Source: Candidatus Hydrogenedentota bacterium
GTDB lineage: Bacteria > Hydrogenedentota > Hydrogenedentia > Hydrogenedentales > SLHB01
Assembly: GCA_045863295.1 (NCBI GenBank)
Contig: BTWA01000018.1
Location: 50,170-114,169 of the forward strand
Length of the DNA stretch: 64,000 bases
Direction: 5' to 3'
This document shows positions 50,130-64,000 of this stretch, piece by piece (the first letter of the stretch is position 1; each line of letters opens with the position of its first letter). The position numbers and the translations under genes are program-made. Under the pieces are notes generated by a model. The model searched no databases and had not been told where the DNA came from. It saw nothing but the letters and a program-made list of their open reading frames with translations.

Positions 50130-50609
50130 ATGAACCAAACGGACATCATTGTGGAACTCGAGAGGTCGGGTGAATCCGTACTGAGGCAATACGACGCCCC
50201 GGAAATCGATCTCGCTAAGTCCTATGGCCCAGGGAAATGGTCCGTGCGCCAGATTCTTGCACACCTTGCCGATGACGAAGTCGTGTCGCTTTGGCGTGTG
50301 TGCAGAGCTGCCGCGGAGCCAGGCAGCCTCGTGCACGGATTCAACGAAAACGCATGGGCTGCGAAGCTGCACTACACGGAAAGGCCAATGCCCACCGCAA
50401 AGGTGTTATTCGCCGCGAACCGCGCGCAGATGATCGAATTCCTGCAACTCCTTTCACCAACCGTATTGGACCACACCATTCACCACTCCGAACGCGGTGA
50501 AATGACGCTGAAATCCTTCCTGGAGTCGGTGGTGTGGCACACGTGGCATCACCTCGAACAAATTGACGCGGCACGATCGGGCCGTATCTGGCCTCCCCAA
50601 GAGCCATGA
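50130..50609 (+). CDS. DinB/YfiT family protein
   Basis: YGPGKWSVRQILAHLAD, HSERG, WHTWHHLEQI. Confidence 0.88.
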   Translation: MNQTDIIVELERSGESVLRQYDAPEIDLAKSYGPGKWSVRQILAHLADDEVVSLWRVCRAAAEPGSLVHGFNENAWAAKLHYTERPMPTAKVLFAANRAQMIEFLQLLSPTVLDHTIHHSERGEMTLKSFLESVVWHTWHHLEQIDAARSGRIWPPQEP

Positions 50610-50625
50610 ATAGAAAGGGCACACC

Positions 50626-51099
50626 ATGACCAAGGCAGAAATCCTCAAGGGATTCGAAGACTCAAGAAAGGCCGTGCTCGATCAGTTCGACGCCCCCGAA
50701 GCCGATTGGAACAAGACCTACGGTGTGGGCAAGTGGACCGTTCGGCAAATACTCGCCCACCTCGCCGATGTCGAAGTCGTGTGCCTGTGGCGGTTTCTTC
50801 GCGGCGCGGCGGAGCCGGGCAGTCCGGTCGAAGCCTTTGACGAAAACAAGTGGGCCGCTTCGCTTGCCTATGAGAGCCGCTCGCTCGCTGTCGCGCGAAG
50901 CACGTTTGAAGCCAACCGGAACCAACTCCTCGAGCTCATTGCCGTCATGCCCGAATCGTCTCTCAACAACACCATACTTCATAGTGAATCCGGTGAACTC
51001 AAGCTGGATTTCTTTCTGGGGAAGATGATTAAACATGCGTTCCATCACGTCGATCAGATCAGAGCCGCCCGCGAAGGTCGCTCCTGGACGCCGGCATAG
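50626..51099 (+). CDS. DinB/YfiT family protein (tandem paralog)
   Basis: YGVGKWTVRQILAHLAD, HSESG, HAFHHVDQI. Confidence 0.88.
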   Translation: MTKAEILKGFEDSRKAVLDQFDAPEADWNKTYGVGKWTVRQILAHLADVEVVCLWRFLRGAAEPGSPVEAFDENKWAASLAYESRSLAVARSTFEANRNQLLELIAVMPESSLNNTILHSESGELKLDFFLGKMIKHAFHHVDQIRAAREGRSWTPA

Positions 51100-51550
51100 G
51101 CGGGCTTGACTCCATTCGGGCAGTCCATAGGTAACGATCCCGTGTCAGGAATGCGCGAAACGCTCACTTAAAGAACGGATTCTAAATGGCGAGCGCTTCG
51201 ATCGTTTCCCCATGCCGCAATTCCTCACTGTAGAGCAGCCTGCATCCGGCATCGAGTGCGGACGCCACAATGAGCGCGTCATGAATGCCATACCGTAGTC
51301 GTGCCTCTGCCCTGCGGCAAATCTCGACGTTGCCTTATGGCTTACCGTATTTAGATATTCCTGAACCCCGCGAAATCGGATACATGCTCCCTAGCCGAAT
51401 TGTGCGTGATCCGTGCCGGATTTCTCCTCGTCAAGCACCTCAAAGAGTTTTTCTTGGGATATCAGTTCAATGAATGCCCTGTTGCATTGAAGATAAGTTC
51501 ACGTGAACCGGCAACTTCCGAGTGCAATGACCCTAAATCCCCGAGGTCCG

Positions 51551-51575
51551 GTGCAACACACTTAACCTAATAAGT
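51551..51575 (+). promoter_or_regulatory. Conserved motif GTGCAACA-N10-AATARGT, copy 1 (upstream of portal)
   Basis: GTGCAACACACTTAACCTAATAAGT, ending 33 nt before the ATG. 20/25 identical to copy 2. Confidence 0.7.
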
Positions 51576-51608
51576 GAAGACATCGGCACTCAACGTGGGG
51601 AGAACACC

Positions 51609-52871
51609 ATGGCCCGCTGGTTCGACTGGAAGAGAAAAGAACGAAAACCCGTTTTCTCGCCCGTCGCGGAAACGTTCACCGAAAGCGAGTCCCGCTCACG
51701 AACCATTTCCTACGCCGAGGACGAGGCTGTCTGGCGCCAAAACATGGCCGGTCTGGTCCCTCTGCCCAATCAGACGCCCTTCTTCATGCTCCCTGTATAC
51801 CGCTTCCTTCGAGACTCTATCCCCGATATCTCGGACGCCGTATGGACATGGAAAAGGCTATGCCAAACCGGGTACGACATCGAAATCCTAAATGCCTCGT
51901 CCGATTTGGCGCACGAAAGGGCCGCGCGCCTGTTGCGCGACTTGGACAAGCGGGTCAACACCGGCGACCGGGGGATGGACGGCCTGTTGGACGTGTTCTA
52001 CACGTCACTGTTTACTTACGGCGCCGCGGCACTGGAGGTCGTGCTGTCGTCCAGCCGCGAGTCAATTCACGACGTGGTGCCTGTAGACGTGTGGACCGTC
52101 CGGTTCAAACGCGAAGAAGGCGTCCTGCAACCGTATCAGGTGCATGAAGGCGTGGAAATCCGTCTGCCCAAGGAACGATTTATCTATATCGGCCTCGATC
52201 GCGACGGCACCAACCCATACGGCCGCTCGATGCTCCGGTGCATTCCGTTCATGGTAAAGATACAACAGCGTTTGATCGAAGACATGGCCAAGGCCACCCG
52301 CAACGCGGGCTGGAGCAAGCTCCATGTGAGCTATACACCGGAAGAGCGCAACCGTGGCGAATCCGCCGAGGCGCATGAGAACCGGATCGCTCACAACTTC
52401 GCGGACCTCCGGGATAGGCTCCGCCGCATCGAGAGCGATCAGAATCTGGTCACCTACGACAACGTGGCGGTCAACCTCATTCGCGGCGATCAACACGCGC
52501 AAGTCTTTTACGACAATCACAAGGCCATCGAGGAACAGGTAATCACGGGCATGCACCTCATGCCCATCCTGCTGGGCAGGAACTACGGCACTACCGAAAC
52601 CTACGGCACCGCGCAATTTGAAATCATTAACCGCCAGGTGGAGGCCGTTAACCGAAGCGTCAAGCGCATCCTTGAGCGACTCTACAACTTCGAACTCGCC
52701 CTCATGTGGGGCGAAGCGGAAGCGCGGGTGAACATGCGCTCCAACCGCACCGTCGACGTGCTCAAGGAAGCGCAAGCACGAGGTCTGGAAATCGATAACG
52801 CCCTTCGACTGCGCGACGAAGGAGTTCTCAATCATGCCGGCGCTGCAAAACTCCTAGGCTTCGAAGTATAG
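51609..52871 (+). CDS. Phage-type portal protein
   Basis: 420 aa. LFTYGAAALEVV, NPYGRS, PILLG...TTETYG..Q pattern typical of portals. First gene of a head module. Confidence 0.8.
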   Translation: MARWFDWKRKERKPVFSPVAETFTESESRSRTISYAEDEAVWRQNMAGLVPLPNQTPFFMLPVYRFLRDSIPDISDAVWTWKRLCQTGYDIEILNASSDLAHERAARLLRDLDKRVNTGDRGMDGLLDVFYTSLFTYGAAALEVVLSSSRESIHDVVPVDVWTVRFKREEGVLQPYQVHEGVEIRLPKERFIYIGLDRDGTNPYGRSMLRCIPFMVKIQQRLIEDMAKATRNAGWSKLHVSYTPEERNRGESAEAHENRIAHNFADLRDRLRRIESDQNLVTYDNVAVNLIRGDQHAQVFYDNHKAIEEQVITGMHLMPILLGRNYGTTETYGTAQFEIINRQVEAVNRSVKRILERLYNFELALMWGEAEARVNMRSNRTVDVLKEAQARGLEIDNALRLRDEGVLNHAGAAKLLGFEV

Positions 52872-52914
52872 GACTCATGGGTCCCGCGGGACCCATCTCA
52901 CGGGAGATACATTC

Positions 52915-53598
52915 ATGGAACTGGCTCCATTCACGTTTCAACACGAAGGCCGTTTGGTCGGATTCCGGGCACAACCGGGAGACGAATCGGCCCTGGCTCA
53001 AGTCAATCGATTCGCGCTGCGCCCTCTGCTGGCCAGCGAAGTGGCCGTATTTACGCTCGACTTGTGCCACAACCAGATAGACCGGCACCACAGCCGGTTT
53101 CCCGAGGAAGAACTCGCGAAAATCAACGCACTCGTCGTGGGCCGGCCGCTTATGGAACGGCACGACCTGCGCGGCTCGTTGCCGCGCGGCACCTTCTTTC
53201 GCTCCGCTTTGAATCAATCCGGTGAACGAATTTCGGTGCGCCCCGATGTATATGTGCTCCGTACCCGGGACAACGAGGATTTCATTCTCAACATTGAAGG
53301 CGGCGTGTATCGGGAAACGTCCATTGGGTTTTCGTTTCGCACCCCCGAATGCTCGATCTGCAAAAAAGATCTTCGCACCTGCGACCACATTCCGGGCAGA
53401 ACCTACGGCGAGGCGGCATGCCACTACGTGATGCGCGACGTTTTGGATGTGATCGAGGGTTCCGTCGTGCCGTCCGGCTCCCAGGGCACGGGATTCGTGG
53501 CACAGGCGCGGTCGTTGCCCGCGGCCTTGAAGACCGCCCGGGAGCAATTCCACAAACCCGTGGAACTTTTCTCGCAACGCCTCTGGGCGGAGGAGTAA
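52915..53598 (+). CDS. Putative prohead maturation protease with Cys/His cluster
   Basis: IDRHHSRF, ERHD (His), ETSIGF (Ser), EGSVV...Q, as in HK97/herpes-fold proteases. Insert CSIC...CDH...C. Located between portal and capsid. Confidence 0.7.
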   Translation: MELAPFTFQHEGRLVGFRAQPGDESALAQVNRFALRPLLASEVAVFTLDLCHNQIDRHHSRFPEEELAKINALVVGRPLMERHDLRGSLPRGTFFRSALNQSGERISVRPDVYVLRTRDNEDFILNIEGGVYRETSIGFSFRTPECSICKKDLRTCDHIPGRTYGEAACHYVMRDVLDVIEGSVVPSGSQGTGFVAQARSLPAALKTAREQFHKPVELFSQRLWAEE

Positions 53599-53602
53599 CG
53601 AC

Positions 53603-53791
53603 ATGGAAGATCGTGAACGCTGCGCCTGTGGCGCCATTTATGACGTGAAAGTGGACAACCTCAAGGATGATCTGCGCGATCTGAAAGATCGAGTGCAACG
53701 CGTGGAAACAACCCTCGCGCGTGGAGTCATGCTGCTGGTGGCCAACCTCACCGGAATGGTGATCTCACTGGCACAGCAAGTGTTCGGCTGA
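53603..53791 (+). CDS. Small coiled-coil protein with C-terminal TM helix
   Basis: GGAGGAG RBS. Heptads VDNLKDDLRDLKDRVQRVE, then hydrophobic GVMLLVANLTGMVISLA. Confidence 0.7.
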   Translation: MEDRERCACGAIYDVKVDNLKDDLRDLKDRVQRVETTLARGVMLLVANLTGMVISLAQQVFG

Positions 53792-53864
53792 TCATTACCC
53801 TTATCGAATCCAACAAGTGCGCCCTATCCATGCCAAGACTCGAATCACAGGAGAACCGAAAACC

Positions 53865-54560
53865 ATGTTCTGGCAACTGACGCTCGATTCCGCCGAATCG
53901 CAAACTCACTCCAGCCCCCCGGACGGCCGCTACGTGCTGCACAGACACTGTGATGATCGCGGTCCCCATCTTGACCTGCGCCTCGAACAAAACGGGTACC
54001 TCACCGGCTGGCGTATCGAAGGAACGAAGTTGGAAGGATCCCCTTGGGCCATCGAGAAGCGCCCCCATCCACTTCGCTGGCTGGAACAGGACGGGAACGC
54101 AGAACGCCTCGATTGCGGCGAGTATGCCTGGCTCGAACAGAGCAACGATCGCCGCGTTGTGGTGATCCGGGGCCGGCATGGCTGTCGCGTAGTCCAGGCC
54201 GATCGCGCGCCCTCACTGCCACTGCACACAGTCCGGGCGGTGGTGGACATCCTCCGCGAATACAACGCTCCCATGGACGATGCCGCAAGGCTGATTCGAG
54301 ACGGCGTCACTGCCCGAAGTCGCGCCATCGCCCGCTTATGCGGGCTCGGACGGGAACTGGAAGGCGACCACTTCGACGAGGCGATATGGCGCAAGGCACT
54401 CAACGGACTGACCTTGGATGAAGTGCACCAGCAATTGCGCAGCTTCGAAAGACGCTTCGACACAGCCTTTCCCCCTACACCGGTTACGCGCCCCGAACGG
54501 CTCGATGCCGAATCCGTGGAACGGGTCGCCGGCGCCATGAGCATCGCAAGAAGCGTCTAG
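53865..54560 (+). CDS. LigD 3'-phosphoesterase-like domain fused to a helical scaffold-like region
   Basis: YVLHRH...HLDLRLE...GW...HPL...LDCGEY mirrors LigD PE FVVQKH...HYDFRLE...SW...HPLDY...WDRGTY. Charged helical C-half. AGGAGA RBS. Confidence 0.65.
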   Translation: MFWQLTLDSAESQTHSSPPDGRYVLHRHCDDRGPHLDLRLEQNGYLTGWRIEGTKLEGSPWAIEKRPHPLRWLEQDGNAERLDCGEYAWLEQSNDRRVVVIRGRHGCRVVQADRAPSLPLHTVRAVVDILREYNAPMDDAARLIRDGVTARSRAIARLCGLGRELEGDHFDEAIWRKALNGLTLDEVHQQLRSFERRFDTAFPPTPVTRPERLDAESVERVAGAMSIARSV

Positions 54561-54657
54561 TCTCGGTTGCCTCGCCAGGAATACGCGCCAAGTACATGTT
54601 CTCACACATCCGTATTCGGGAACTCTCAATCGGTCGGACGATCAGCATTGGCGTGTA

Positions 54658-54682
54658 GTGCAACAAACAGATCCCAATAAGT
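54658..54682 (+). promoter_or_regulatory. Conserved motif GTGCAACA-N10-AATARGT, copy 2 (upstream of decoration/capsid genes)
   Basis: GTGCAACAAACAGATCCCAATAAGT, ending 54 nt before the ATG. Confidence 0.7.
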
Positions 54683-54736
54683 AAGCAATGTCGACTACGC
54701 CACTCGGAAGTGTGGCATGCAAGAGGAGATTCAATC

Positions 54737-55117
54737 ATGGCATTTGGTGATATCGGCGGGGCGGTGACCGAACTGGTCATCACCTGCAAAACGCCGGCAA
54801 GCGGCACGGTAGCCATCGCGAAAGGCGACGCCGTAAAGCTCGACGGCGACTACCTCGTGGACAACGCAACGGACGCGGAAGACGCAGTTTTCGGCCAAGC
54901 CCTGGCCGCCTCGGAACGCAACGCGGAGGCAATTCCCGTGAAAGTGCGGGGCATCTGTGTGTTCGCCTACACGGGAACGGCTCCCACGGCAGACGGCGTG
55001 CAGGGCATCGTCGCGTCCGCTACAGACGGCAAGGTGAAAGCTCCCGCTTCCGGTAACGGACGCGGCATTAACGTGAAGGTGGACGCGGCGCAAACGCTTG
55101 TCCACGTTCTGCTGTAA
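54737..55117 (+). CDS. Putative head decoration/cement protein
   Basis: 126 aa, Gly/Ala/Val/Thr-rich beta-type (IAKGDAVKL, VFGQA, DGKVKA). GAGGAG RBS. Immediately precedes the capsid gene. Confidence 0.65.
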   Translation: MAFGDIGGAVTELVITCKTPASGTVAIAKGDAVKLDGDYLVDNATDAEDAVFGQALAASERNAEAIPVKVRGICVFAYTGTAPTADGVQGIVASATDGKVKAPASGNGRGINVKVDAAQTLVHVLL

Positions 55118-55131
55118 GGAGACAGCCCATC

Positions 55132-56178
55132 ATGACATTTCGAAACGATTGTATGAAAGAACGCGTGGCGTTTCTGAGCCGCGACCCCGAACAACTCCGG
55201 CAATCCCGCGGCCTCGAATTGTATGAGACGCTTGGCGCGCTGGGCCTGTCGCACCAGCAGTACTTCCGCGCGCTCGGCACCAACGCCGAGGATTATTGCG
55301 CGCAAGAGTTCGGCATCGACCTGCAACGCATCACCGTGGACAGGTTTTTCCAATCCGATCCCAACGCGAAGTGGCTCTTTCCGGACATCGTCCGCGAAGC
55401 GGTGCTCACCGGGATGAAGCGCAAGCCCGCCTACCCCGAACTCATCATCCGCGACGAAGCCATCGAAGGTACGGCCTACAACGTGCCGTACGTCGAAGAA
55501 TCCGAGGCGGAAGAGGAACTGCGTGGCGTGGCCGAAGGCGCTGCCATTCCCGAATCCGCCATTACCTATGGCGACCGCATCGTGCGCCTCGACAAGAAAG
55601 GCCGCGGCGTTATCGCGTCCTACGAAGTCATTCGCCGCATGTCCGTGGACATGTTGCGCGTCCATCTGATGCGCATGGGCGAGCGCCTCGGCAGGCACCT
55701 CGACGCGCGCCTGGCCACCGTGCTGGCCTCCGGCGACGGCTCCGGCAGCACCGCGCCAACCGTTCTCAATACGGCCACCGCCGCCACCTGGACCTATGCC
55801 GACATTCTCAAAGGCTTCATGAAGCTGTCGTTGGAAAAGTACTTCACGCCGACGCACATGATCGCCAACGCGGACCTGGCCCAGACCATTCTCAAAATGA
55901 GCGAATTCTCCGAAGCCGCTCTATTCGATTTCGCGAAAACGGGCAATCTGCCCACCCCGTTGGGCGTGAAGCTGGTGCCCATGGCCGATCAACCCGCAAA
56001 CAAACTCACCATTCTCGACGCGGGCCATGCCGTGCAGAAACTGACCGAGCAGGACCTGCTCGTCGAAAGCGACAAACTCATCCATCAGCAATGGGACCGC
56101 ACGTATCTGACGGTCGTGACCGACTTCGCGATCATCTACAACGATGCGCGCATCGTCGTGAACAGCGATTGGTCGTAA
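55132..56178 (+). CDS. Phage-type major capsid protein (HK97-fold-like)
   Basis: 348 aa. LFPDIV, VAEGAAIPES...VRLDKKGR...SYEVIRR (E-loop/P-domain pattern), spine helix LMRMGERLGRHLD. TAAGGAG RBS. Confidence 0.85.
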   Translation: MTFRNDCMKERVAFLSRDPEQLRQSRGLELYETLGALGLSHQQYFRALGTNAEDYCAQEFGIDLQRITVDRFFQSDPNAKWLFPDIVREAVLTGMKRKPAYPELIIRDEAIEGTAYNVPYVEESEAEEELRGVAEGAAIPESAITYGDRIVRLDKKGRGVIASYEVIRRMSVDMLRVHLMRMGERLGRHLDARLATVLASGDGSGSTAPTVLNTATAATWTYADILKGFMKLSLEKYFTPTHMIANADLAQTILKMSEFSEAALFDFAKTGNLPTPLGVKLVPMADQPANKLTILDAGHAVQKLTEQDLLVESDKLIHQQWDRTYLTVVTDFAIIYNDARIVVNSDWS

Positions 56179-56193
56179 ACAACGTTCCGGTTC

Positions 56194-56219
56194 GCGGGGC
56201 AGGCCTTGGCCTGCCCCGC
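56194..56219 (+). terminator. Perfect GC hairpin after capsid gene (no U-tract)
   Basis: GCGGGGCAGGCC-TT-GGCCTGCCCCGC. Confidence 0.55.
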
Positions 56220-56233
56220 TCCAAGGAGGCTCC

Positions 56234-56650
56234 ATGGCCGTATTCACCAACGAGACCGCGGTGCGAGTTAAGTTCCAACTCGCGGACACCACATTGGTAA
56301 CCCCTGCGCTTATCGAACAAAGCATCGAAGACGCCCACGCCGAAGTGCTTCGCTTTCTGGCTCCCGAAGTTGATACCGAGTCCCCGGAAGACGCGCTGGT
56401 CGTAGGCGAGACTCTGCTCGCCGGCGCCCATGTATACCGCTCCCTCGCCGCGCACGACGCCGCGAACCAGAAGCACATAGCGATCGGCGCCAACCGCATC
56501 GAGGCCGGCAAGCGTTTCGAGGCGTTGAATGCCATTGCCGAAGTTGTCGAACGTCAGGCCTGGTACATACTCGAGCCCTACGTGGCCCACATCCCCGCGC
56601 GCTCCGCCATTGCGTTAACGGAATCCACACCCGTGATGGGAGAAGCATGA
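56234..56650 (+). CDS. Putative head-tail adaptor/connector
   Basis: 138 aa helical. FTNETAVR...IEQSIEDAHAEV...ILEPYV pattern. Directly after the capsid gene. AAGGAGG RBS. Confidence 0.6.
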   Translation: MAVFTNETAVRVKFQLADTTLVTPALIEQSIEDAHAEVLRFLAPEVDTESPEDALVVGETLLAGAHVYRSLAAHDAANQKHIAIGANRIEAGKRFEALNAIAEVVERQAWYILEPYVAHIPARSAIALTESTPVMGEA

Positions 56651-56651
56651 C

Positions 56652-57338
56652 ATGGCCATCACGCTCGGCAACGTCACATTCGACCACGCGCATACGGCAG
56701 CCCTCGAATCGCACGACGAAGTCGGAGGCCGCGACGGCCGGCGCATTCGGATCTCGGGTCTCATTCTGGGGCAACCCTCGCTGACCGCCATACACGAACA
56801 ACTGGATGCGATTCTGGATGCCGCCTCCGCCGATGAATACAACGCAGCCCTCTCGCTGCGCCCAGGCCGCCGCATGTGGGTGCGGCGCGAGGAATTCGAA
56901 CGTGCCGTGGCCAACGACGCGCTTGTCGGCTCCTTTCAACTCGTGCTTGAGGCAAAGGACCCACACGAAGAATCGGTGGCCGAAATAGCATTGAACTGGA
57001 CGATTGACGCATCCGGAGACACCTTGAGCGTCACAGCCATGGGCAACGTGTTTTCGGAACCCCGGATAACACTCACCGCCGTGGGCGACCTCGTCAATCC
57101 CGCGCTATCGGACGGTACGCGCCAGATCGCCTATAGCGGCACTGCACTCGCCGGTTCGGTATTGGTCTTCGACGGACCAGCCAAGTCCGTTCGCCTGAAC
57201 GGCGACGACGTCACACCCTATGCCACAGGCGAATTCCCCACAATCGCTCCCGAAGGCACCGTATTGACATTTTTCGACGACACTGCAAGCGCGCACCAAG
57301 CCCAGGCCGTAGTCGCCTTCCGGGACCGGTGGTGGTGA
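56652..57338 (+). CDS. Distal-tail (Dit)-like protein
   Basis: FQLVLEAKDPH, GNVFSEPRITL, GSVLVFDG...VRLNG...GEFPTIAP, and a terminal FRDRWW, typical of siphophage Dit proteins. Confidence 0.65.
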   Translation: MAITLGNVTFDHAHTAALESHDEVGGRDGRRIRISGLILGQPSLTAIHEQLDAILDAASADEYNAALSLRPGRRMWVRREEFERAVANDALVGSFQLVLEAKDPHEESVAEIALNWTIDASGDTLSVTAMGNVFSEPRITLTAVGDLVNPALSDGTRQIAYSGTALAGSVLVFDGPAKSVRLNGDDVTPYATGEFPTIAPEGTVLTFFDDTASAHQAQAVVAFRDRWW

Positions 57339-57340
57339 CC

Positions 57341-59080
57341 ATGCAATACCGAATCGAAATTTGGGATATCTGGAATCGCCGTATCGCTTCCCTCGAAGAC
57401 GTACCGCTTGTAGAAGCCACCCGAACGCTGCCCGGCAAGGCCGACACAATCCGCGGCGTGCTCCCCGATTCCCTGACGCAACTGGGGCACGGATACCGCG
57501 TGAAAGTCATTGTGGACGGCCAGCTCTTCTGCGAAGGTGTTGTGGACTCGGTGGAGCCGGGCTGGGGCGACACACGAAAACTCATCCTCGATCAATACGT
57601 GCCCTTTCACAAGGTCATCGCATTCGAGGCAAAGTCCGAACCCCGCCCGGGCAACTCCCGCATTGCGATGGCATTTGAAAACCGCCCTGTTCACGAAATG
57701 GTGAGGGCCATAGTCAACGCCGCGCCCGGAGCGATTCACTACACCGTGGCTCATCAGGCCTATCCCGATGGCGCGGTCCGCGAATTCGCGAAATTCGAAT
57801 CGCGCAAATCACCGGAAAACGAATTGGGCGTCGGCTCAATCGACACCGGCCAATGGGTAGGTTCAGGCCGAATGGACCTGTCGGCTGCATTCGCCAAAGA
57901 CGGCGACACGATCGCAGGCATTGTCGTCGACGGCGCTCCATGGCCCGATCTCCGGTTGATGCTGATCGATTGCGAAGAAACAAGCCTGAACAGCCATGCC
58001 GTAAGCAGACACCCCGAAACCGAATTCTGGACATCCGGCGAGTACAACGCGAGCGGATACAAATACAAAGCCGACGCCGCAAAGGCAGCCCTGCAGGACC
58101 TCATCAACACGAACGGAATCGACTATATCGAACTGAATCCACATCGCGACACCGAGGGAAATTTCGACGATCGCATCGACGCATTCGGACGCTACATCGG
58201 CCTTGTATACGGCGGCGGACAATGCCTGAATGCGGCTATGGTCGAGCTGGGCCATGCCGACGTGTACCTCTACCAGGATGGCAAGTTTCACGTGCCCGAA
58301 ATGGCGCTCAAGGATTTCTACTCCTACGCCGCACCGGCTCAAGACTCCGTGGAGGAAACCTCCGCCTCCCTCGTAAGCTACGACATCGCAGCCGGTGCAT
58401 TGGAAGCATTGACGGCGCTGGCCTACGCCGCCGGCGGATACATCTGGTCCGTGGGGCTGGACCTGGCCGTAACCTTCCGGAAGGCAACCGTCGCGGATAC
58501 CGTGGTTCACTTTGACCCCGTAGAGATGAGCGTAACGCTCGGCTCCGGCGATAGCGGCGTTGTAAACGCCGTCTTCTTCGAAGGAAATCCCGTGAATGCC
58601 CCGCTCGCAAAAACCTACGTGCGCAGCGCCAGCGTAAACGCGCTGGGATTCCGAAGCCGCTCACTGGAGTACGGCGCACTGCGCGTCGAAGCAGACGCCG
58701 ACCAACTCGTCTCCGGCATATTGGACGACACCGCATACCCGGTCGTAACCGGCGAAGTCTCGTTCCATCACGGCCATCCCGGTATCCACGCCGGCGATCT
58801 GATGGCCTTTCGCGGCGAACCGTTTCGCAGGCTGAGCCCCGCTCTCGACCACGAATGGAACAACGCATTCCCCGGCACATTAATCGCCCGCGCCGCGGAA
58901 GTCCGCCACAGGTTCTCCGGCCGCGTCGTAAACACGCGCGTGTTCCTGACATCCCCGTTGCGCTCCGTGAACGCGCCCATTGAATTCATGGTCCGCACGC
59001 AACCGCCGCTCGCCACCTTTTTTGAATTCCGTCTCGACAACGCCGTGGTCGGCCTGGACATGGGCTACCACCTGGACTGA
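57341..59080 (+). CDS. Baseplate hub/Tal-like protein
   Basis: Follows Dit. N-terminal IEIWD...RIASL, LFCEGVV; ALEALTALA...WSV; VVNAVFFEG; IHAGDLM, as in hub folds. Confidence 0.55.
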   Translation: MQYRIEIWDIWNRRIASLEDVPLVEATRTLPGKADTIRGVLPDSLTQLGHGYRVKVIVDGQLFCEGVVDSVEPGWGDTRKLILDQYVPFHKVIAFEAKSEPRPGNSRIAMAFENRPVHEMVRAIVNAAPGAIHYTVAHQAYPDGAVREFAKFESRKSPENELGVGSIDTGQWVGSGRMDLSAAFAKDGDTIAGIVVDGAPWPDLRLMLIDCEETSLNSHAVSRHPETEFWTSGEYNASGYKYKADAAKAALQDLINTNGIDYIELNPHRDTEGNFDDRIDAFGRYIGLVYGGGQCLNAAMVELGHADVYLYQDGKFHVPEMALKDFYSYAAPAQDSVEETSASLVSYDIAAGALEALTALAYAAGGYIWSVGLDLAVTFRKATVADTVVHFDPVEMSVTLGSGDSGVVNAVFFEGNPVNAPLAKTYVRSASVNALGFRSRSLEYGALRVEADADQLVSGILDDTAYPVVTGEVSFHHGHPGIHAGDLMAFRGEPFRRLSPALDHEWNNAFPGTLIARAAEVRHRFSGRVVNTRVFLTSPLRSVNAPIEFMVRTQPPLATFFEFRLDNAVVGLDMGYHLD

Positions 59081-59088
59081 GGAAAATC

Positions 59089-59610
59089 ATGGCTATCAAA
59101 GGACAGGGATACGTAAAAACCACATGGGCCTTCGAAGAACGCCCCGTGGCGTCTTCCAAACTGAACACATGGGACGACCGAATCGAAGCCGCCCTGGAAC
59201 TCGCATTCCATCTGTTGAATCACGCATGGGGCGGAGATTCCGGCGTGCTGCGCAACGCAACAGCGGACGACCTGCGAGTCCACGCGACCACCCCGGAAAG
59301 CGTCCGCGTGCGAGTAGAACCCGGATACGCCTTCATTTCGAAATGCCCATTCCGGATGACCGGACCCGCCGAAACCGGCGATCTCGCCCCGCCCGCGGCC
59401 CAACCCCGGATCGATCTCGTTCAAGCGAGGCTCGACACCTGGTCCGTCCAAGTGCTCACCGGCGTCGAATCCGCCACCCCGTCTCCGCCTGTCGCGGGCA
59501 CGGACTGCATCGCACTCGCGCAAATCTACCTGCGCCCCGGAATGACCACCATCAAAGACGCCGACGACAGCGTCAACGGATACATCACCGATGTCAGAAC
59601 ATTCTTATAA
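59089..59610 (+). CDS. Baseplate/fibre-associated minor structural protein
   Basis: LRVHAT...VRVEPGYAFI, PRIDLVQARLD, IALAQIY, ITDVR pattern of phage minor tail proteins. Confidence 0.55.
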   Translation: MAIKGQGYVKTTWAFEERPVASSKLNTWDDRIEAALELAFHLLNHAWGGDSGVLRNATADDLRVHATTPESVRVRVEPGYAFISKCPFRMTGPAETGDLAPPAAQPRIDLVQARLDTWSVQVLTGVESATPSPPVAGTDCIALAQIYLRPGMTTIKDADDSVNGYITDVRTFL

Positions 59611-60058
59611 CGGACGAAACGACCTCCGCCTCGTCGCCGAGGTCGACGGCGAAAAACTCACCCACTTCCGGTTGAAAGAATTCGAAAACCGCCAAGGCCT
59701 CGCCATGGTCCATCGCACCGCTTTGGAATCCCTCGAAAGGGTCCGCCGTGAACTGCGCGCCATGGCCGGCGAAGACGTATGGATCATCGTCACCGACGCC
59801 GTCCGCACCCCCGAAGACCTGGACCGCCTCGCCGAGCGGCTCGGCTGGGCCGATCAAGGCGGGCTCGTCTCCCGCCGCTCCAAACACCTCGCCGAATTCG
59901 GCGGCATCGCCGTCGATATCGTCGCCGTGATCGCAAGCAACCGCGCCCGAGTCCCCCAGAAGACCCTCGGAAACGTGTGCCGATCCCATTTCGATTTCGT
60001 GAAAGACGACTACAAAGACGGTCACGTACACGCGGACAACCGCGAACGCGGCCGATGA
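59591..60058 (+). CDS. Peptidase M15-like endolysin
   Basis: HFRLKEF, LERVR, VTDAVRT, SKH...GIAVDI, HVHAD give the M15/LAS zinc ligands H-x-D...HxH. Confidence 0.75.
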   Translation: MSEHSYNGRNDLRLVAEVDGEKLTHFRLKEFENRQGLAMVHRTALESLERVRRELRAMAGEDVWIIVTDAVRTPEDLDRLAERLGWADQGGLVSRRSKHLAEFGGIAVDIVAVIASNRARVPQKTLGNVCRSHFDFVKDDYKDGHVHADNRERGR

Positions 60059-60082
60059 ACAATACCCAAAGGGAGTGAAAAT

Positions 60083-60442
60083 ATGGACTGGATAAACAAC
60101 GAAGCAGGCCTCGTCATGCTCAGCACCATCATCAGCGGACTATGGGCCTTCTTCAAATCGCAGGAATGGCTCCGGCTCGCAAAAGAACACAAGGGAGAAA
60201 AGGCGCTCCTGGCACTCGAAGCCGGCGTGCACCACGCCTACGAAGAATACGTGCGCGCCATCAAAGCCGCAAGAACCGACGGCAAACTCACCCCCGAAGA
60301 ACGCCGCCGCGCACGCGATCTCGCCGTGCATGCCGCCGTCGAATTCGGCCGAAATGAAGGCGTCGATGTCATGACAGAACTCGGCGTCTCCTACATCGAC
60401 GCCTGGCTTAAACGCCTCCTCCAACAAATAAAAACACACTGA
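60083..60442 (+). CDS. Putative holin-like membrane protein
   Basis: Single N-terminal TM, then AGVHHAYEEYV...GKLTPEE...IDAWL (LL-H-holin-like layout). Adjacent to the endolysin. GGGAG RBS. Confidence 0.55.
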   Translation: MDWINNEAGLVMLSTIISGLWAFFKSQEWLRLAKEHKGEKALLALEAGVHHAYEEYVRAIKAARTDGKLTPEERRRARDLAVHAAVEFGRNEGVDVMTELGVSYIDAWLKRLLQQIKTH

Positions 60443-60443
60443 G

Positions 60444-60512
60444 CGCGGGGAAAGCGGCGACGGACCTGAGTCGAGTTGAAACGACGAGACAACGGCCGTC
60501 GCCCTCCCCGCG
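60444..60512. repeat. Long interrupted inverted repeat between convergent genes
   Basis: CGCGGGGA(60444-51)/TCCCCGCG(60505-12) and GGCGACGG(60456-63)/CCGTCGCC(60496-503). Confidence 0.55.
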
Positions 60513-60603
60513 ACATCACGCGCGCAAAATCCGCACAGAAAAGAAAACCCGCATCAACTTCAAGGCCGAAACCGCTCACTGCCTGAATCACCAAACTCCG
60601 TGG

Positions 60604-61746
60604 CTAGCGGGACACCGTAAACGAACGAATCGCACGGACCACCCGGCCCTGGTCTGTCCGCTCCATGTCGTTGTAAAACGGAAGCCGGATCAACCGGTCC
60701 GAAATATCCTCCGTCACCGGGCATTGCCCCGCCTTGCCGCCAAACGAACGGCCCATCGGCGACAAATGCAACGGAAGATAGTGAAACACCGACAAAATCC
60801 CCTTCGACTTCAAATACTCGATCAACGCGTCCCGGCTCTCCGGTGTCGGCATGATCATGTAAAACATGTGATAGGCCTGGCTGCAATGGGCAGGCACATG
60901 CGGCAACTTCACCCCCTGGCCGCCTGCCCACTCGCCCAAATTCTTGAAATAGTAATCCCAAATCGCCTTCCGGTTCCGGCAAATCGTCTTGTGCGCCTCC
61001 AACTGCGCATACAAAAACGCCGCCAGCACGTCCGAAGGCAAGAAGCTCGACCCCACATCCACCCAGTTATATTTGTCCACCATCCCCCTGAAAAACTGCG
61101 ATCGGTTTGTCCCCTTCTCCCGGATAATCTCCGCACGCTCAATGTACCGGGGATCGTTGATCAGCAGCGCGCCCCCCTCGCCGCACGTGAAATTCTTCGT
61201 CTCGTGAAAACTCAACGTCGCCATGCACCCCAGCGTGCCCAGCTTCCGCCCCTTGTACCTCCCGAACAGTCCGTGCGCATTGTCCTCGATCACGGCCACC
61301 CCGTGCGCCGAAGCGGTCTTAAGAATACTGTCCATCTCGCACGCAACGCCCGCGTAATGCACCGCCACTATCGCCTTCGTCTTCCCCGTGATCGCCGCCC
61401 TAAGCTTGCGCTCGTCCAGGTTCAACGTGTCCCGCCGGATATCCACAAACACCGGCTTCACGCCGCGCAATACATACGCGTTCACCGAAGAAACGAACGT
61501 GAACGAGGGCACAATCACCTCGTCCCCCGGTTTCAAATCCAGCAAAAGCGCCGTCATCTCCAGCGCGTCCGTGCACGACGTCGTCAACAACGCCCGGCGA
61601 ACCCCAAGCCTCTCCTGAAAAAAATCCTGGCAACGGTGCGTAAACACCGCATCACCGGAAATCTTCCCCGAACTCAAGGCCTCCGCGATGTACACCAACT
61701 CCTTGCCAGCAAAACAAGGACGATTGAATGGAACGTGATATTTCAT
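60604..61746 (-). CDS. wecE: dTDP-4-amino-4,6-dideoxygalactose transaminase (DegT family)
   Basis: LLTTSCTDALEM, VHYAGVACEMD, EDNAH, SFHETKN..CGEGG, EKGTNR, VDKYNWVDVGSS, FHYLPLH. Confidence 0.93.
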   Translation of the reverse strand: MKYHVPFNRPCFAGKELVYIAEALSSGKISGDAVFTHRCQDFFQERLGVRRALLTTSCTDALEMTALLLDLKPGDEVIVPSFTFVSSVNAYVLRGVKPVFVDIRRDTLNLDERKLRAAITGKTKAIVAVHYAGVACEMDSILKTASAHGVAVIEDNAHGLFGRYKGRKLGTLGCMATLSFHETKNFTCGEGGALLINDPRYIERAEIIREKGTNRSQFFRGMVDKYNWVDVGSSFLPSDVLAAFLYAQLEAHKTICRNRKAIWDYYFKNLGEWAGGQGVKLPHVPAHCSQAYHMFYMIMPTPESRDALIEYLKSKGILSVFHYLPLHLSPMGRSFGGKAGQCPVTEDISDRLIRLPFYNDMERTDQGRVVRAIRSFTVSR

Positions 61747-62537
61747 TTCTTTTTAAACACAAAGAGCTTCTGTGTTCCGTAGTCGCCATACGCTGGCAGC
61801 ATGGAGAAGAATCGGTTCCACTCCATATTGGGATTCGCTACATTCGACGTATCGCCAAGAAACTGTGCAAGCAGGGGTTTGAGCACTCTGGTTCCAATGA
61901 AGTAGGTACTGGCGAAGTTCACAACATCCACAAATTCAAGGTCTGGACACGCCGTCTTGACGGCCTCTTCGTCAAGATAGTGATTGAACTGCGGCATGGG
62001 TATTGCCGGCAATCCCCACTCGGCGCGAAACGCATTCATCTTGTTCCAGCCCTGCAATGTTGCTTCCGAAAACATTACGATTCCACCCGGTTTTACAACC
62101 CTCGCGCATTCGCGAATCCCTTTGACTTGGTTGTCCCAGGTTTCAAGATTAATTAGCACTCGGATGGCGATTGCGACGTCAAACTGTGACGATTCGCATT
62201 GCAGTGATGTTATATCACCCACATCGAACCGAACATTGCCGAGAAGGTTTCCATCCATGCGTTTGAGGCGTTCCTTGGCGGCATCGATCATTTGAGGGAT
62301 GTAGTCGAGTCCGAGTATGTCCACAGACCTGGATGCCGCGAACTGGACTGTGGAGAAACCATTCGCGCAGCCTACATCAAGCACCTTGTCTCCGTCTTTG
62401 ATGCGCGAAATGATCTCGCGAATCTCCAGGTCCATAACAGGCGTATCAGACCATGATGCTACCGGCGATTCGCCATGCTCCAGCGCTTGCTGTTCCCAAA
62501 ACTGCTTGATTTGTGCCAACGTGTACTTTGTTGTCAT
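61743..62537 (-). CDS. Class I SAM-dependent methyltransferase
   Basis: VLDVGCANG, GLD, FDVGDI, RVVKPGG. Confidence 0.88.
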   Translation of the reverse strand: MTTKYTLAQIKQFWEQQALEHGESPVASWSDTPVMDLEIREIISRIKDGDKVLDVGCANGFSTVQFAASRSVDILGLDYIPQMIDAAKERLKRMDGNLLGNVRFDVGDITSLQCESSQFDVAIAIRVLINLETWDNQVKGIRECARVVKPGGIVMFSEATLQGWNKMNAFRAEWGLPAIPMPQFNHYLDEEAVKTACPDLEFVDVVNFASTYFIGTRVLKPLLAQFLGDTSNVANPNMEWNRFFSMLPAYGDYGTQKLFVFKKK

Positions 62538-62572
62538 TTCATTCGTTCCCAATTCAGTGGCGATTTCGCCGC

Positions 62573-63517
62573 TCAGTTTTGTGCCTGGTTTTCGATATCG
62601 TTGCGTAAAGTCACTTTTACGACATATGAAGGCTTGTCCATGAGGCGAAAGTGCATTCGGGCAAGGTACTGACCCATGATGCCAAGCGTAAAAAGCTGTG
62701 TACCCGAGAATATGGCAACTATGGACGCCAGGAATGGAAAACCTGGTATTGGCGTGCCCTGAAGTGTAAAGCGTATAAGGACATAGACCAGAACAAGAAC
62801 CCCAAAAATGGTGAAGCCGAATCCGAGTAAGGATGCAAATTCAAGCGGCATCGTACTGAAACCTGTGATCATATTGACCGCATGTATGACCAACTTTCTA
62901 AACGTGTAGTTTGAGACGCCAATGTGGCGAGGTTCGTGCCTGACTTTTATTGCCTTAAACTTGGTCGTCGCCCAAGTCAGAAGTATGTCAATCGAAATGA
63001 AGGGGCTTTGGTAAGTCACAAATGCATCGCGCAAATGGGTTCGAAATGCTCTAAATGCACATACATTTCTCGCTACCTCTGTACCCATGGCGCTCCCAAG
63101 TGCAAACTTGGTTATTTGAGACGCTAGATCGCGTAAGAATCCATGTTGCTCGTTTTGTGGAGTGCCATAGACAACGTCTACGTCAACGGTCAAGGCAGCC
63201 AGTAAAGTTGGAATCTCTTCCGGTGGGTGTTGGAGGTCGTCGTCGATTGTCACGACAGTGTCAAATCTTGCGTGGCGAATTCCGCACAAGAGAGCATTGT
63301 GTTGTCCATAGTTTCTCATCAGTGAAATTCCGCAAACCCACGGATGTTCACCGCAAATTTCGCCAATGATTCCCCAACTATTGTCTCGGCTTGAATCGTT
63401 TACCAGGATTAGCTCGTACTCTTGGTGGCATCCCTCAAGGACCGGGTGTAGTCTTTCGACCAAAGGCTTCAATGAGCCTTCGCTGTTGTATACAGGGATG
63501 ACAACAGATATCCCCAT
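62573..63517 (-). CDS. GT2 polyprenyl-phosphate glycosyltransferase (ArnC/GtrB-like)
   Basis: ISVVIPVYN, VNDSSRD, RNYGQHNA, IDDDLQHPPEEI, two C-terminal TMs. Confidence 0.92.
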   Translation of the reverse strand: MGISVVIPVYNSEGSLKPLVERLHPVLEGCHQEYELILVNDSSRDNSWGIIGEICGEHPWVCGISLMRNYGQHNALLCGIRHARFDTVVTIDDDLQHPPEEIPTLLAALTVDVDVVYGTPQNEQHGFLRDLASQITKFALGSAMGTEVARNVCAFRAFRTHLRDAFVTYQSPFISIDILLTWATTKFKAIKVRHEPRHIGVSNYTFRKLVIHAVNMITGFSTMPLEFASLLGFGFTIFGVLVLVYVLIRFTLQGTPIPGFPFLASIVAIFSGTQLFTLGIMGQYLARMHFRLMDKPSYVVKVTLRNDIENQAQN

Positions 63518-63832
63518 GCATTGCTCCTTATCCAGCGTGGCGTGTGCAGCACACGCCACGGCACCCGTGATCTGATAAGTAATGAATCCTTCCCAAGTGT
63601 TTGTGTTATAGCAAATTACAGGACATTTATCCAAGCAACTCGACCCAAATCCAAGGGTAAGTTTCAGAAGATTGGGCCGACCCACTGCGGCCCATGGTGC
63701 CTTGCTGCGGAGCGTGAAGTTCAGACGTACTATTCGCAAGCTGCAAATATGCAATCGGCCGTATGTTCCAGTGCAACGACAATGCAACCGCCTGTCGTGC
63801 CTTGCAGGAAACTCCTAGGGTTGCCGGGGAAA

Positions 63833-63857
63833 GTGCAACAACTTTGCCTAAATAGGT
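63833..63857 (+). promoter_or_regulatory. Conserved motif GTGCAACA-N10-AATARGT, copy 3 (upstream of host ORF at 63904)
   Basis: GTGCAACAACTTTGCCTAAATAGGT, ending 46 nt before the ATG. Confidence 0.6.
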
Positions 63858-63903
63858 AGTAGGAACGATCTAAATCATGGCCTGTCTCGTGAGGTGCACT
63901 TTC

Positions 63904-64000
63904 ATGCGAAGAAATTGGGTTTATCTGTTCGTAATTCTGTTAATTGCACTCCTTGGTTTGGGTGTAGCGCCCCGTTACCTGGAGAATCTCAAGGTGGGGG
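63904..64000 (+). CDS. Start of an exported/membrane protein (3'-truncated by window edge)
   Basis: GAGGTG RBS. MRRNWVYLFVILLIALLGLGVAPRY... signal-anchor-like, open to the window end. Confidence 0.6.
   Translation, partial: MRRNWVYLFVILLIALLGLGVAPRYLENLKVG

Follow-up and report, generated by a model that had tools for sequence, protein, structure and literature searches.

A recurrent upstream motif as the likely dedicated promoter of a dispersed, domesticated phage-like particle gene set in Hydrogenedentota

Results

The window (the whole stretch of DNA that was analysed, 64,000 nt) comes from a 6.3-Mb source genome, coded G000, and carries a cassette of phage-like particle genes on the + strand. 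The cassette opens with a portal gene (51609..52871; PF06074, phrog_3753), present in 38 of 40 relatives. It is followed by a conserved, syntenic gene of the function-less family phrog_16951 (52915..53598), by its position only a probable prohead protease, by a small conserved protein (53603..53791; phrog search, synteny), and by a protein with a LigD 3'-phosphoesterase-like N-terminal domain (53865..54560; profile match to 3p43 with E 3e-8, weak TIGR02777). A head decoration-like protein (54737..55117; phrog_4588, phrog_122) and the major capsid protein (55132..56178; PF25209, phrog_3922) come next, and then a conserved, syntenic gene with no family match that is, from position only, a possible head-tail adaptor (56234..56650). 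The remainder comprises a Dit-like tail-tip protein (56652..57338; PF22768, phrog_33), a protein taken as Tal/hub-like from its position (57329..59080; phrog_452, with a weak SNase-like segment matching PF00565 below the cut-off), a baseplate/virion structural protein (59089..59610; phrog search), an endolysin-like protein (59591..60058; weak phrog_894), and a holin-like protein (60083..60442) proposed from an N-terminal hydrophobic segment, position and synteny. Genes for a tail tube or a tape measure were not recognised in the cassette, and a search of five chosen genomes, run with no positive control, found no Tal-like gene.

The last gene of the window (63904..64000, +) is fibre/spike-like and codes for a hydrophobic N-terminus; only its 5' end is present, as the contig stops there. 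Its product is identical at 30 of 32 aa to that of G000:C2:147131-148051, homologues of which sit inside the cassette in about 16 relatives. The segment 63389..64000 (+) is 85% identical to this fibre-gene locus on contig C2, motif included, and is probably continued by the start of contig C13. The gene had been read in a preliminary description of the window as a host exported-protein ORF; it is a detached particle-cassette gene. The same description had proposed that the particle genes are domesticated, and this is supported by the capsid gene, found in 96 of 108 phylum relatives and essentially single copy. Phage structural and packaging genes are kept vertically at separate loci, as judged from presence, copy number and synteny. 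A low-sensitivity search of viral contigs found neither a close relative of the capsid protein nor a strict match to the motif.

The exact motif pattern matches the window three times, at 51551, 54658 and 63833, always on the + strand, compared with a mean of 0.00 in 100 shuffles; with two mismatches allowed the same three matches are returned and no others, against 0.11 expected. The copies end 33, 54 and 46 nt before the ATGs at 51609, 54737 and 63904, and copies 1 and 2 agree at 20 of 25 positions, so that the count, strand, spacing and similarity first described all hold. Within the genome the exact pattern is confined to this window, but seven further sites differ from it at one position and 19 at two, and the pattern is therefore one flavour of a wider motif. 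Since the three copies themselves served to define it after the fact, the shuffle test by itself overstates the case, and the weight rests on independent tests in relatives.

All matrix tests used a portal-trained matrix built from relatives only, because a matrix trained on the source genome itself drifted toward a class of dispersed repeats and was dropped; a loose pattern run on five genomes was near background and hence not used. With this matrix, copy 1 (51551..51579, +) scores 18.2 bits (genome-wide rank 24) and corresponds by orthology to the site conserved upstream of the portal operon. Copy 3 (63833..63861, +), before the detached fibre-like gene, scores 17.1 bits. Copy 2 (54658..54686, +), the internal site before the decoration and capsid genes, scores 6.0 bits and is weak against the phylum matrix. 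A site precedes the decoration gene in roughly 10 of 74-77 loci (7 of 74 within 170 nt, with four more about 250-280 nt upstream), and copy 2 is a lineage-level extra.

Unseeded Gibbs sampling on the portal upstream regions of 29 relatives, the source genome excluded, recovered the motif de novo, and 25 of the 29 sites end 22-52 nt before the portal start in sense orientation. The exact core lies at most 130 nt from the portal start in 14 of 29 relatives, compared with 110 of 2219 ordinary genes. In a partly circular test, a portal site was found in 39 of 55 loci in sense and 2 of 55 in antisense; a strong site is missing in 16 of 55. No site was found before the genes for Dit (0/59), Tal (0/56), lysin (0/34) or holin (0/48). 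In the source genome, matches of at least 12 bits within 60 nt of a start number 21 in sense and 3 in antisense, a bias that is gone beyond 60 nt (21 and 29). Both positional bias upstream of genes and conservation in orthologues, as anticipated at the outset, are borne out, and together these comparisons support a promoter-like element with positional and strand bias.

The portal-trained matrix also marks unlinked terminase genes of the source genome: four HGGxSTG genes rank 1, 2, 3 and 6 of 37 and two large terminases rank 11 and 13. The unlinked operon of small plus large terminase has a site in 14 of 30 loci in sense and 1 of 30 in antisense, a strong site being missing at 16 of 30; the count directly before TerL itself (3/30) is misleading, because the operon starts one gene earlier. 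HGGxSTG paralogues occur in 9 of 40 relatives, and the prophage TerL on contig C15 has no site within 300 nt. The fibre-like gene has a site in 12 of 15 cases outside the cassette and in 0 of 9 inside it (Fisher p 3e-4, with kin that are not independent), which leaves three detached fibre genes that lack one. In one relative (G035), a detached homologue of the baseplate gene at 59089..59610 also has the motif upstream. Gain of a site by a gene that has left the cassette is shown, as are conservation, position and strand. The suggestion that the motif could serve as a handle for unlinked components proved sound, the terminases and the fibre-like gene having been found blind.

Positions are numbered from 0, the G before the TGCAAC core; the set of 70 strong sites was selected on the core and the 29-site Gibbs set was not. 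Beyond the core, only avoidance of C and a purine run are shared. A C-free block at the motif spacing gave 43 intergenic matches in place of the 3-8 obtained with 11 control hexamers. The whole 28-mer is genome-specific: outside the core, portal and terminase sites are 53% alike within a genome and 38% between genomes (15 genomes, p 1e-4), and some genomes have a GG variant of the core. Motif variants occur, for example, in G002, G003 and G023. Within-genome similarity runs across the supposed spacer, which counts against a plain sigma promoter, as such a promoter does not predict it.

Copy number ranges from 0 to 43 per genome, and some genomes have almost no copies except at particle genes. 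Among 42 sampled copies in G009 and G011, most have no recognisable gene behind them, and in both genomes the copies show a sharp left edge; those of G009 share downstream sequence from position -1. Copies often lie among short tandem-repeat tracts. The replichore split of 26 and 38 is not convincing as a bias. In the source genome, 31 of 55 non-repeat matches face a gene (60% expected), and a 24-copy dispersed repeat, with tandem arrays of 203-bp period, has a conserved part that ends at the core. An Rfam search of the repeat arrays and two motif loci gave no match.

Discussion

A domesticated, GTA-like set of particle genes is scattered over Hydrogenedentota chromosomes, and the motif is likely its dedicated promoter. 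The marking of fibre and terminase genes, together with the identity of the gene behind copy 3 as a detached cassette gene, makes a particle-specific promoter likely; a regulon shared with host genes is not supported. Where blocks are placed apart (the portal operon, the small-plus-large terminase operon, detached fibre and baseplate genes, and split decoration-capsid halves), the motif stands in sense upstream of the leading gene, a short and fixed distance away, and it is mostly missing before operon-internal genes. The recognition element may be the TGCAAC core plus one purine and the melted region the C-free, A/T-rich stretch 16-28 nt downstream, with transcription predicted to start near the purine run at about 24-28. 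One factor, either a non-autoregulated host sigma or a phage-derived activator, would induce all blocks together, and patchy phage-like genes (the solo HGGxSTG small-terminase-like genes and the second large terminase) may use the same site for co-induction. New sites likely arise as copies of one that the genome already has, and such copying would explain both the genome-specific flavour and the orphan copies.

An unlikely extension gives the motif two uses, as an element of an undescribed class: it would be the late promoter of the domesticated particle found across the phylum and, at the same time, the packaging start of its terminase. Up to about 40 host-encoded starts, spread over the chromosome by the lineage, would then co-evolve with a fast-changing small terminase, and the solo HGGxSTG genes would exploit the site as minimal parasites of the particle. 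A related and unlikely reading takes the motif as a pac-like packaging-initiation site read by a fast-evolving TerS, either alone or also as a promoter, with dispersed copies seeding packaging and solo HGGxSTG genes as hitchhikers. The genome-specific 28-mer, the variable copy number and the sharp left edge in G009 and G011 are in keeping with it, as is the divergence of the small-terminase candidates (about 36% identical, compared with about 62-71% for TerL). Pac sites of headful phages such as P22 and SPP1 lie upstream of the small-terminase gene and are lineage-specific. The motif is like them in both respects and in being paired with a fast-evolving TerS candidate, TerS being described as fixing packaging specificity through pac sites (PMC7947584), but it stands at many operon starts and not once. 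A pac site is needless at every operon start, yet the motif tracks operon starts and detached genes. Moreover, the model of the TerS candidate consists of plain helices with no obvious helix-turn-helix (pLDDT 84.6), the candidate matches P27-type TerS only non-significantly, the main TerL of the source genome has no separate TerS gene (a weak remnant lies at its N-terminus), and the repeat family of that genome is conserved upstream of the core, the opposite polarity.

That the motif is an ordinary ECF-type host promoter, with AAC in the -35 element, a -10 about 16 nt later and a regulon that includes host genes, is improbable. The AAC-containing core resembles the TGAAAC -35 of Bacillus subtilis ECF promoters, and a small, strand-specific regulon is likewise a feature of those read by sigmaW, V, X and M, for which PMC5758882 also reports that spacer sequence can matter. 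Eight ECF factors are common to G000 and the distant relatives G036 and G028, and one ECF fusion gene (1327 aa) is preceded, at 121 nt, by a site of 17.6 bits. Of the ECF anatomy first assigned to the motif, the AAC-containing -35-like element stands and the -10 does not: of 70 strong sites, none matches the proposed right half and 8 have its G, and there is no conserved CGT-type -10. Unlike ECF promoters, which would be expected before their own genes, no autoregulatory site precedes the eight shared ECF genes (at most 8.6 bits upstream), and no frame of the fusion's length is found among the 12 sigma matches of G036. With an ECF start near 31-35, the purine run at 24-28 would stay outside the transcript in 14 short-leader genes whose ATG lies at 34-43. 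A search for a sigma factor missing only in G028, which lacks the cassette, found none. The source genome also encodes an RpoS-like sigma (G000:C7:24505).

No conserved host target emerged from the two phage-like candidates tested for conservation, and the proposed regulon shared with host genes was not upheld. Among the 37 listed source-genome genes under the motif, 27 are ordinary; the conservation check covered the two phage-like candidates. Each was considered as the reader of the motif and rejected as not conserved: a solo replication-initiator-like gene (C9:130781) occurs in 4 of 41 genomes and a DUF1353 gene in 1 of 41.

The sigma54 consensus has an invariant GG at -24 and GC at -12 at fixed spacing. 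A non-canonical promoter of this type, read by the single RpoN with a special activator, is very improbable here. The core plus one purine, six bases and GC reproduces the -24/-12 spacing, C stands at position 15 in 50 of 70 sites, the GG core variant occurs in some genomes, and RpoN is present in 37 of 40 relatives. The invariant GG is nevertheless replaced in most sites, where GC is found instead; the RpoN box of the source genome is canonical, with a separate set of canonical sites (30 sense, 5 antisense), the core with GC at the -12 spacing is not enriched there (11 vs 8), a second RpoN was not found in that genome, and the portal regions have no shared upstream enhancer above shuffles.

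A minus-strand sigma54 promoter was rejected as a general reading: GG-N10-GC is present in copy 3, copies 1 and 2 miss this spacing by one base, and matches have no bias toward minus-strand genes. A sigma70 frame was also rejected, with a -10-like hexamer in 1 of 70 sites (either frame tested) and TTG absent from the commonest -35 triplets; housekeeping promoters of the source genome, by contrast, are canonical. Promoters of the single-subunit RNA polymerases of T7, T3 and SP6 have a whole-length, lineage-specific consensus with an A/T-rich stretch and a purine run at the end. The motif is like them in all these traits, although it is the longer element. No T7-like or YonO-like polymerase was found in the source genome, in a search in which no control genome passed the cut-off. 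No reader was found among sigma factors, RpoN, phage-type polymerases and genes under the motif, and on sequence comparison the motif fits none of the promoter classes tested.

Finally, the motif could have no regulatory role and mark where a small copy-and-paste element, prone to land before these genes, ends or crosses over. This would suit the G000 repeat ending at the core and its arrays, the shared downstream sequence in G009 and the tandem-repeat surroundings, but is extremely improbable, as it leaves unexplained why the motif is retained across the phylum at a constant distance and on one strand upstream of two unlinked operons, the fibre contrast and the genomes with copies almost solely at particle genes, and as the flanks of paired cassette sites are alike no more than by chance.

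For the promoter reading, the closest parallel is the gene transfer agent of Caulobacter crescentus (CcGTA), described in PMC11150451 as activated by GafY and IHF and as having a GafZ element. Both systems have a domesticated phage-derived cluster with dispersed units, and CcGTA has about 18 accessory promoters bound by one dedicated activator (PMC11150451). Promoters of CcGTA are of the sigma70 type, with a GafY site far upstream and, between -35 and -10, a palindromic GafZ element (PMC11150451), whereas in Hydrogenedentota the motif has neither a sigma70 -10/-35 frame nor a palindrome and has multiplied into orphan copies, and even the terminase is detached. In Rhodobacter capsulatus (RcGTA), one factor, GafA, links separated structural and lysis genes via promoters (PMC6363796), as would the postulated Hydrogenedentota factor. 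The GafA site is not mapped at nucleotide resolution according to PMC11150451; in Hydrogenedentota, a different phylum with no tail tube or tape-measure gene recognised, the cis-element is readable. Separately kept loci and a shared cis-element, traits of a GTA-type dispersed regulon, were both found. A literature search that covered few subscription journals turned up no publication on the motif or on such a particle in Hydrogenedentota; a matching entry could still exist in a catalogue of ECF motifs.

Through its sequence, the motif gives access to a phage-derived particle of uncultured bacteria that is undescribed and phylum-wide. Independently of homology, it links the capsid cassette with the terminase and fibre genes that lie detached from it, and it predicts which further genes belong to the particle set. 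Induction becomes testable, and the regulator could be named without culturing the host. The genome-specific drift and the dozens of copies suggest either an undescribed reader or an additional function in packaging DNA, and the latter, if true, would matter for the question of how GTAs select the DNA that they package.

Results

Exactly three sense-strand copies of the motif occur in the window (0.00 expected), at 51551 before the portal gene, at 54658 before the decoration and capsid genes and at 63833 before a fibre-like open reading frame. Their places, their distances to the ATGs (33, 54 and 46 nt) and the 20/25 identity of copies 1 and 2 are as given in the preliminary description, which had noticed no other full copy; none further was found in the window even with two mismatches allowed. 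Across the whole genome (G000, 6.3 Mb), the exact pattern is restricted to the window, and 26 additional sites were found at one or two mismatches. Partial extra cores lie just 5' of copy 3 (63770-63790) and copy 1 (51522-51528), and the minus strand of copy 3 has sigma54-type spacing, directed toward a glycosyltransferase operon.

Conservation in orthologous upstream regions was borne out by unseeded Gibbs sampling of the portal upstream regions of 29 relatives, G000 being excluded, which recovered the motif de novo: of six runs, the best two converged on it and others reached it in a shifted register, with the site ending 22-52 nt upstream of the portal start in 25 of the 29 regions. The features in common are a TGCAAC core, a purine, a G/C-rich stretch, then ~12 nt nearly free of C and a purine run at the end. 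A matrix built from 25 of the 29 sites, the four weakest left out, scores copies 1, 2 and 3 at 18.2, 6.0 and 17.1 bits. Of 70 strong sites, picked at ≥14 bits and on the core and almost all of them taken from relatives, none has the right half originally proposed (AATARGT) and 8 have its G; this half is a flavour of G000. With gene starts taken from our own gene calls, the expected positional bias upstream of genes was found in G000 within 60 nt of the start (21 sense and 3 antisense matches at 12 bits) and was lost farther out, where there was no strand bias (21 and 29).

The phage-derived cassette comprises the genes at 51609-60442, namely portal, probable protease, two further genes, decoration, major capsid, Dit-like and other tail-tip, and lysis-like genes, among which we recognised neither a terminase nor a gene for a tail tube or a tape measure. 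Gene order is fixed across the loci compared; the portal was found in 38/40 relatives and the capsid gene in 35/40 (96/108 across the phylum, nearly always single and 58-81% identical). The product of 53865-54560 has an N-terminal domain that resembles the LigD 3'-phosphoesterase (E 3e-8 to 3p43) and in which columns of His/Asp/Arg are conserved; it is possibly a DNA end-healing enzyme within the capsid operon. In the Tal-position protein (57329-59080), the segment of residues 204-315 is weakly SNase/endonuclease-like. Two DinB-family paralogues lie in tandem immediately upstream of the cassette (50130-51099). Nine loci (L131-L133, L138-L140, L143, L144 and L151) are without adaptor, Dit, Tal and baseplate genes and have the lysis-like genes directly after the capsid gene. 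In relatives G028 (97% complete) and G013 (93%), TerL is present and portal and capsid were not found; the G028 TerL has no motif upstream.

The reading frame after copy 3 had been taken for a host gene, the basis for assigning the particle to a host regulon. Its product is identical at 30 of 32 aa to a fibre-like gene on contig C2, and it lies in a duplicated segment 85% identical to the C2 locus, motif included; the gene is a detached cassette homologue, and that argument falls. In ~16 of 80 loci a homologue lies within the cassette, flanked by the protease and small genes, and placement inside or outside the cassette is a natural experiment. After removal of one duplicate, two loci not located and one without upstream DNA from 28, 24 were scored: the site precedes the gene in 12/15 loci outside the cassette and in 0/9 inside (Fisher p 3e-4, the kin not being independent). 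In G035, the site likewise precedes a baseplate-like gene that is detached. At the portal, the site was found in 39/55 loci against 2 in antisense, a count that is partly circular, the set containing some of the training genomes. Inner cassette genes seldom have the site (protease, 6/61; decoration, 7/74; capsid, 9/77, mostly matches within the decoration gene), and it was found before no Dit, Tal, lysin or holin gene in the cassette loci scored. From this rarity and the outside/inside contrast, the element follows the transcription-unit starts of particle genes, as a promoter does.

The proposed use of the motif as a handle for unlinked components proved sound, as the relatives-trained matrix picks out terminases and the fibre-like gene in G000. 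Of 37 genes with a site of at least 11 bits within 150 nt, HGGxSTG-domain paralogues with weak small-terminase matches take ranks 1, 2, 3 and 6, and large terminases take ranks 11 and 13; the list also includes a fibre/spike-like gene and two phage-like singletons that lack conservation, and the remaining 27 are ordinary genes, many of whose sites are probably due to chance. A fifth HGGxSTG gene, absent from the gene calls, has a 27-bit site. The family is patchy (9/40 relatives), with a site at 17/28 loci in sense and 1/28 in antisense, the 28 including four G000 loci and one duplicate. The solitary G000 members lie at C1:48733, C10:102464, C20:94165, C26:495 and C23 near 18300, a second TerL lies at C23:22332, and in G011 (contig C5) a single 967-aa frame holds both HGGxSTG and TerL matches.

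The main TerL was matched in 35/40 relatives, partly by incomplete matches. A gene of 110-250 aa usually precedes it, with the motif ahead of that gene; at 12 bits, the terminase operon has a sense site in 14/30 loci and an antisense site in 1/30, the latter being a divergent portal site. The G000 main TerL (C2:99515-101134, L069) is without this separate partner, and its first 50 aa weakly resemble the C-terminal part of the partner, which suggests a truncated fusion. At L185/L047 (G021:C183), terminase and portal operons are divergent, each after a near-identical site, the near-identity running ~8 nt beyond the motif. At L268 (G015:C6:55600-65000), the motif precedes a gene resembling ParB/DNA methylases, followed by another phage-like gene, and is also found, 5 kb off, before a truncated duplicate of this gene start; with the genes named from sequence resemblance, L268 has the look of a mobile module that uses the site.

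Outside the core, portal and terminase sites are 53% alike within a genome and 38% between genomes (15 genomes, p 1e-4), against 33% and 26% for the upstream control; for pairs within a cassette the likeness is 44%, against 37% (16 pairs, p 0.001), the flanks being no different. A strict pattern, which overlooks variants having C within the A/T stretch, was counted 43 times in G009, 39 in G011 and 22 in G000 (reversed-pattern controls, 0-3) and not at all in 17/41 genomes. In 20 sampled regions each from G009 (22/43 sites) and G011 (20/39), no gene could be recognised behind most copies, which have a sharp left edge in common; one fibre gene and two fragments of particle-related genes were seen. 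In G000, 31/55 non-repeat matches face a gene (60% expected), and 24 copies form a dispersed repeat whose conserved part stops at the motif core. This repeat (C29:1500-2800, L383; C24:90800-91900, L384; about 20 other sites) has a core of ~60 nt, occurs in tandem arrays with a 203-bp period and gave no Rfam match; other copies of the motif have a piece of it 18-72 nt upstream.

Discussion

The motif is a genuine cis-element, phylum-wide in reach, and it labels the dispersed units of a domesticated phage-like particle; most likely, with fair probability on the sequence comparisons, it is a dedicated promoter of those units. Same-genome likeness outside the core and the many copies without a gene behind them are beyond what a plain promoter explains. 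The main rival is recognition of the motif by a fast-evolving small terminase; the TerS candidate shows ~36% identity, its helical fold model has no obvious DNA-binding head and its P27-type TerS matches are non-significant; fold and matches neither confirm its identity nor support specific binding. Within-genome copying of sites would be the simplest account of both the flavour and the lineage-specific amplification.

For the promoter reading, no reader was found among the sigma factors and polymerases examined in G000. The motif has a spacing reminiscent of the sigma54 consensus; the sigma54 GG is replaced in most sites, the motif core in sigma54 geometry is not enriched in G000, and the single, canonical RpoN has its own canonical sites (30 sense, 5 antisense). 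The ECF-type anatomy first suggested did not hold, the conserved ECF -10 being absent. None of the eight ECFs common to G000, G036 and G028 has an upstream site, nor do the RpoS-like and FliA sigma genes. In 14 short-leader genes, counted from the G before the core, the purine run begins at 24-28 while the ATG ranges from 34 to 43, a pattern that favours a putative start around 24-28 and not, as for an ECF-type promoter, around 31-35. A search with weak controls found no T7-like or YonO-like polymerase. The motif does not fit the sigma70 frame, though G000 housekeeping promoters are canonical.

No paper on the motif was found in the literature search, and a low-sensitivity search of viral contigs found no close relatives. 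GafY and IHF of CcGTA act at the main promoter and ~18 accessory promoters, and the GafZ element is located between -35 and -10 (PMC11150451); GafA plays a comparable role in RcGTA (PMC6363796). Set against these regulons, the Hydrogenedentota system is alike in regulon logic, whereas its promoter anatomy excludes membership. RcGTA is described in PMC7947584 as having no discrete packaging starts and a TerS that lacks a domain for specific DNA binding, and for this reason a pac role of the motif, if it has one, would be a real departure from RcGTA.
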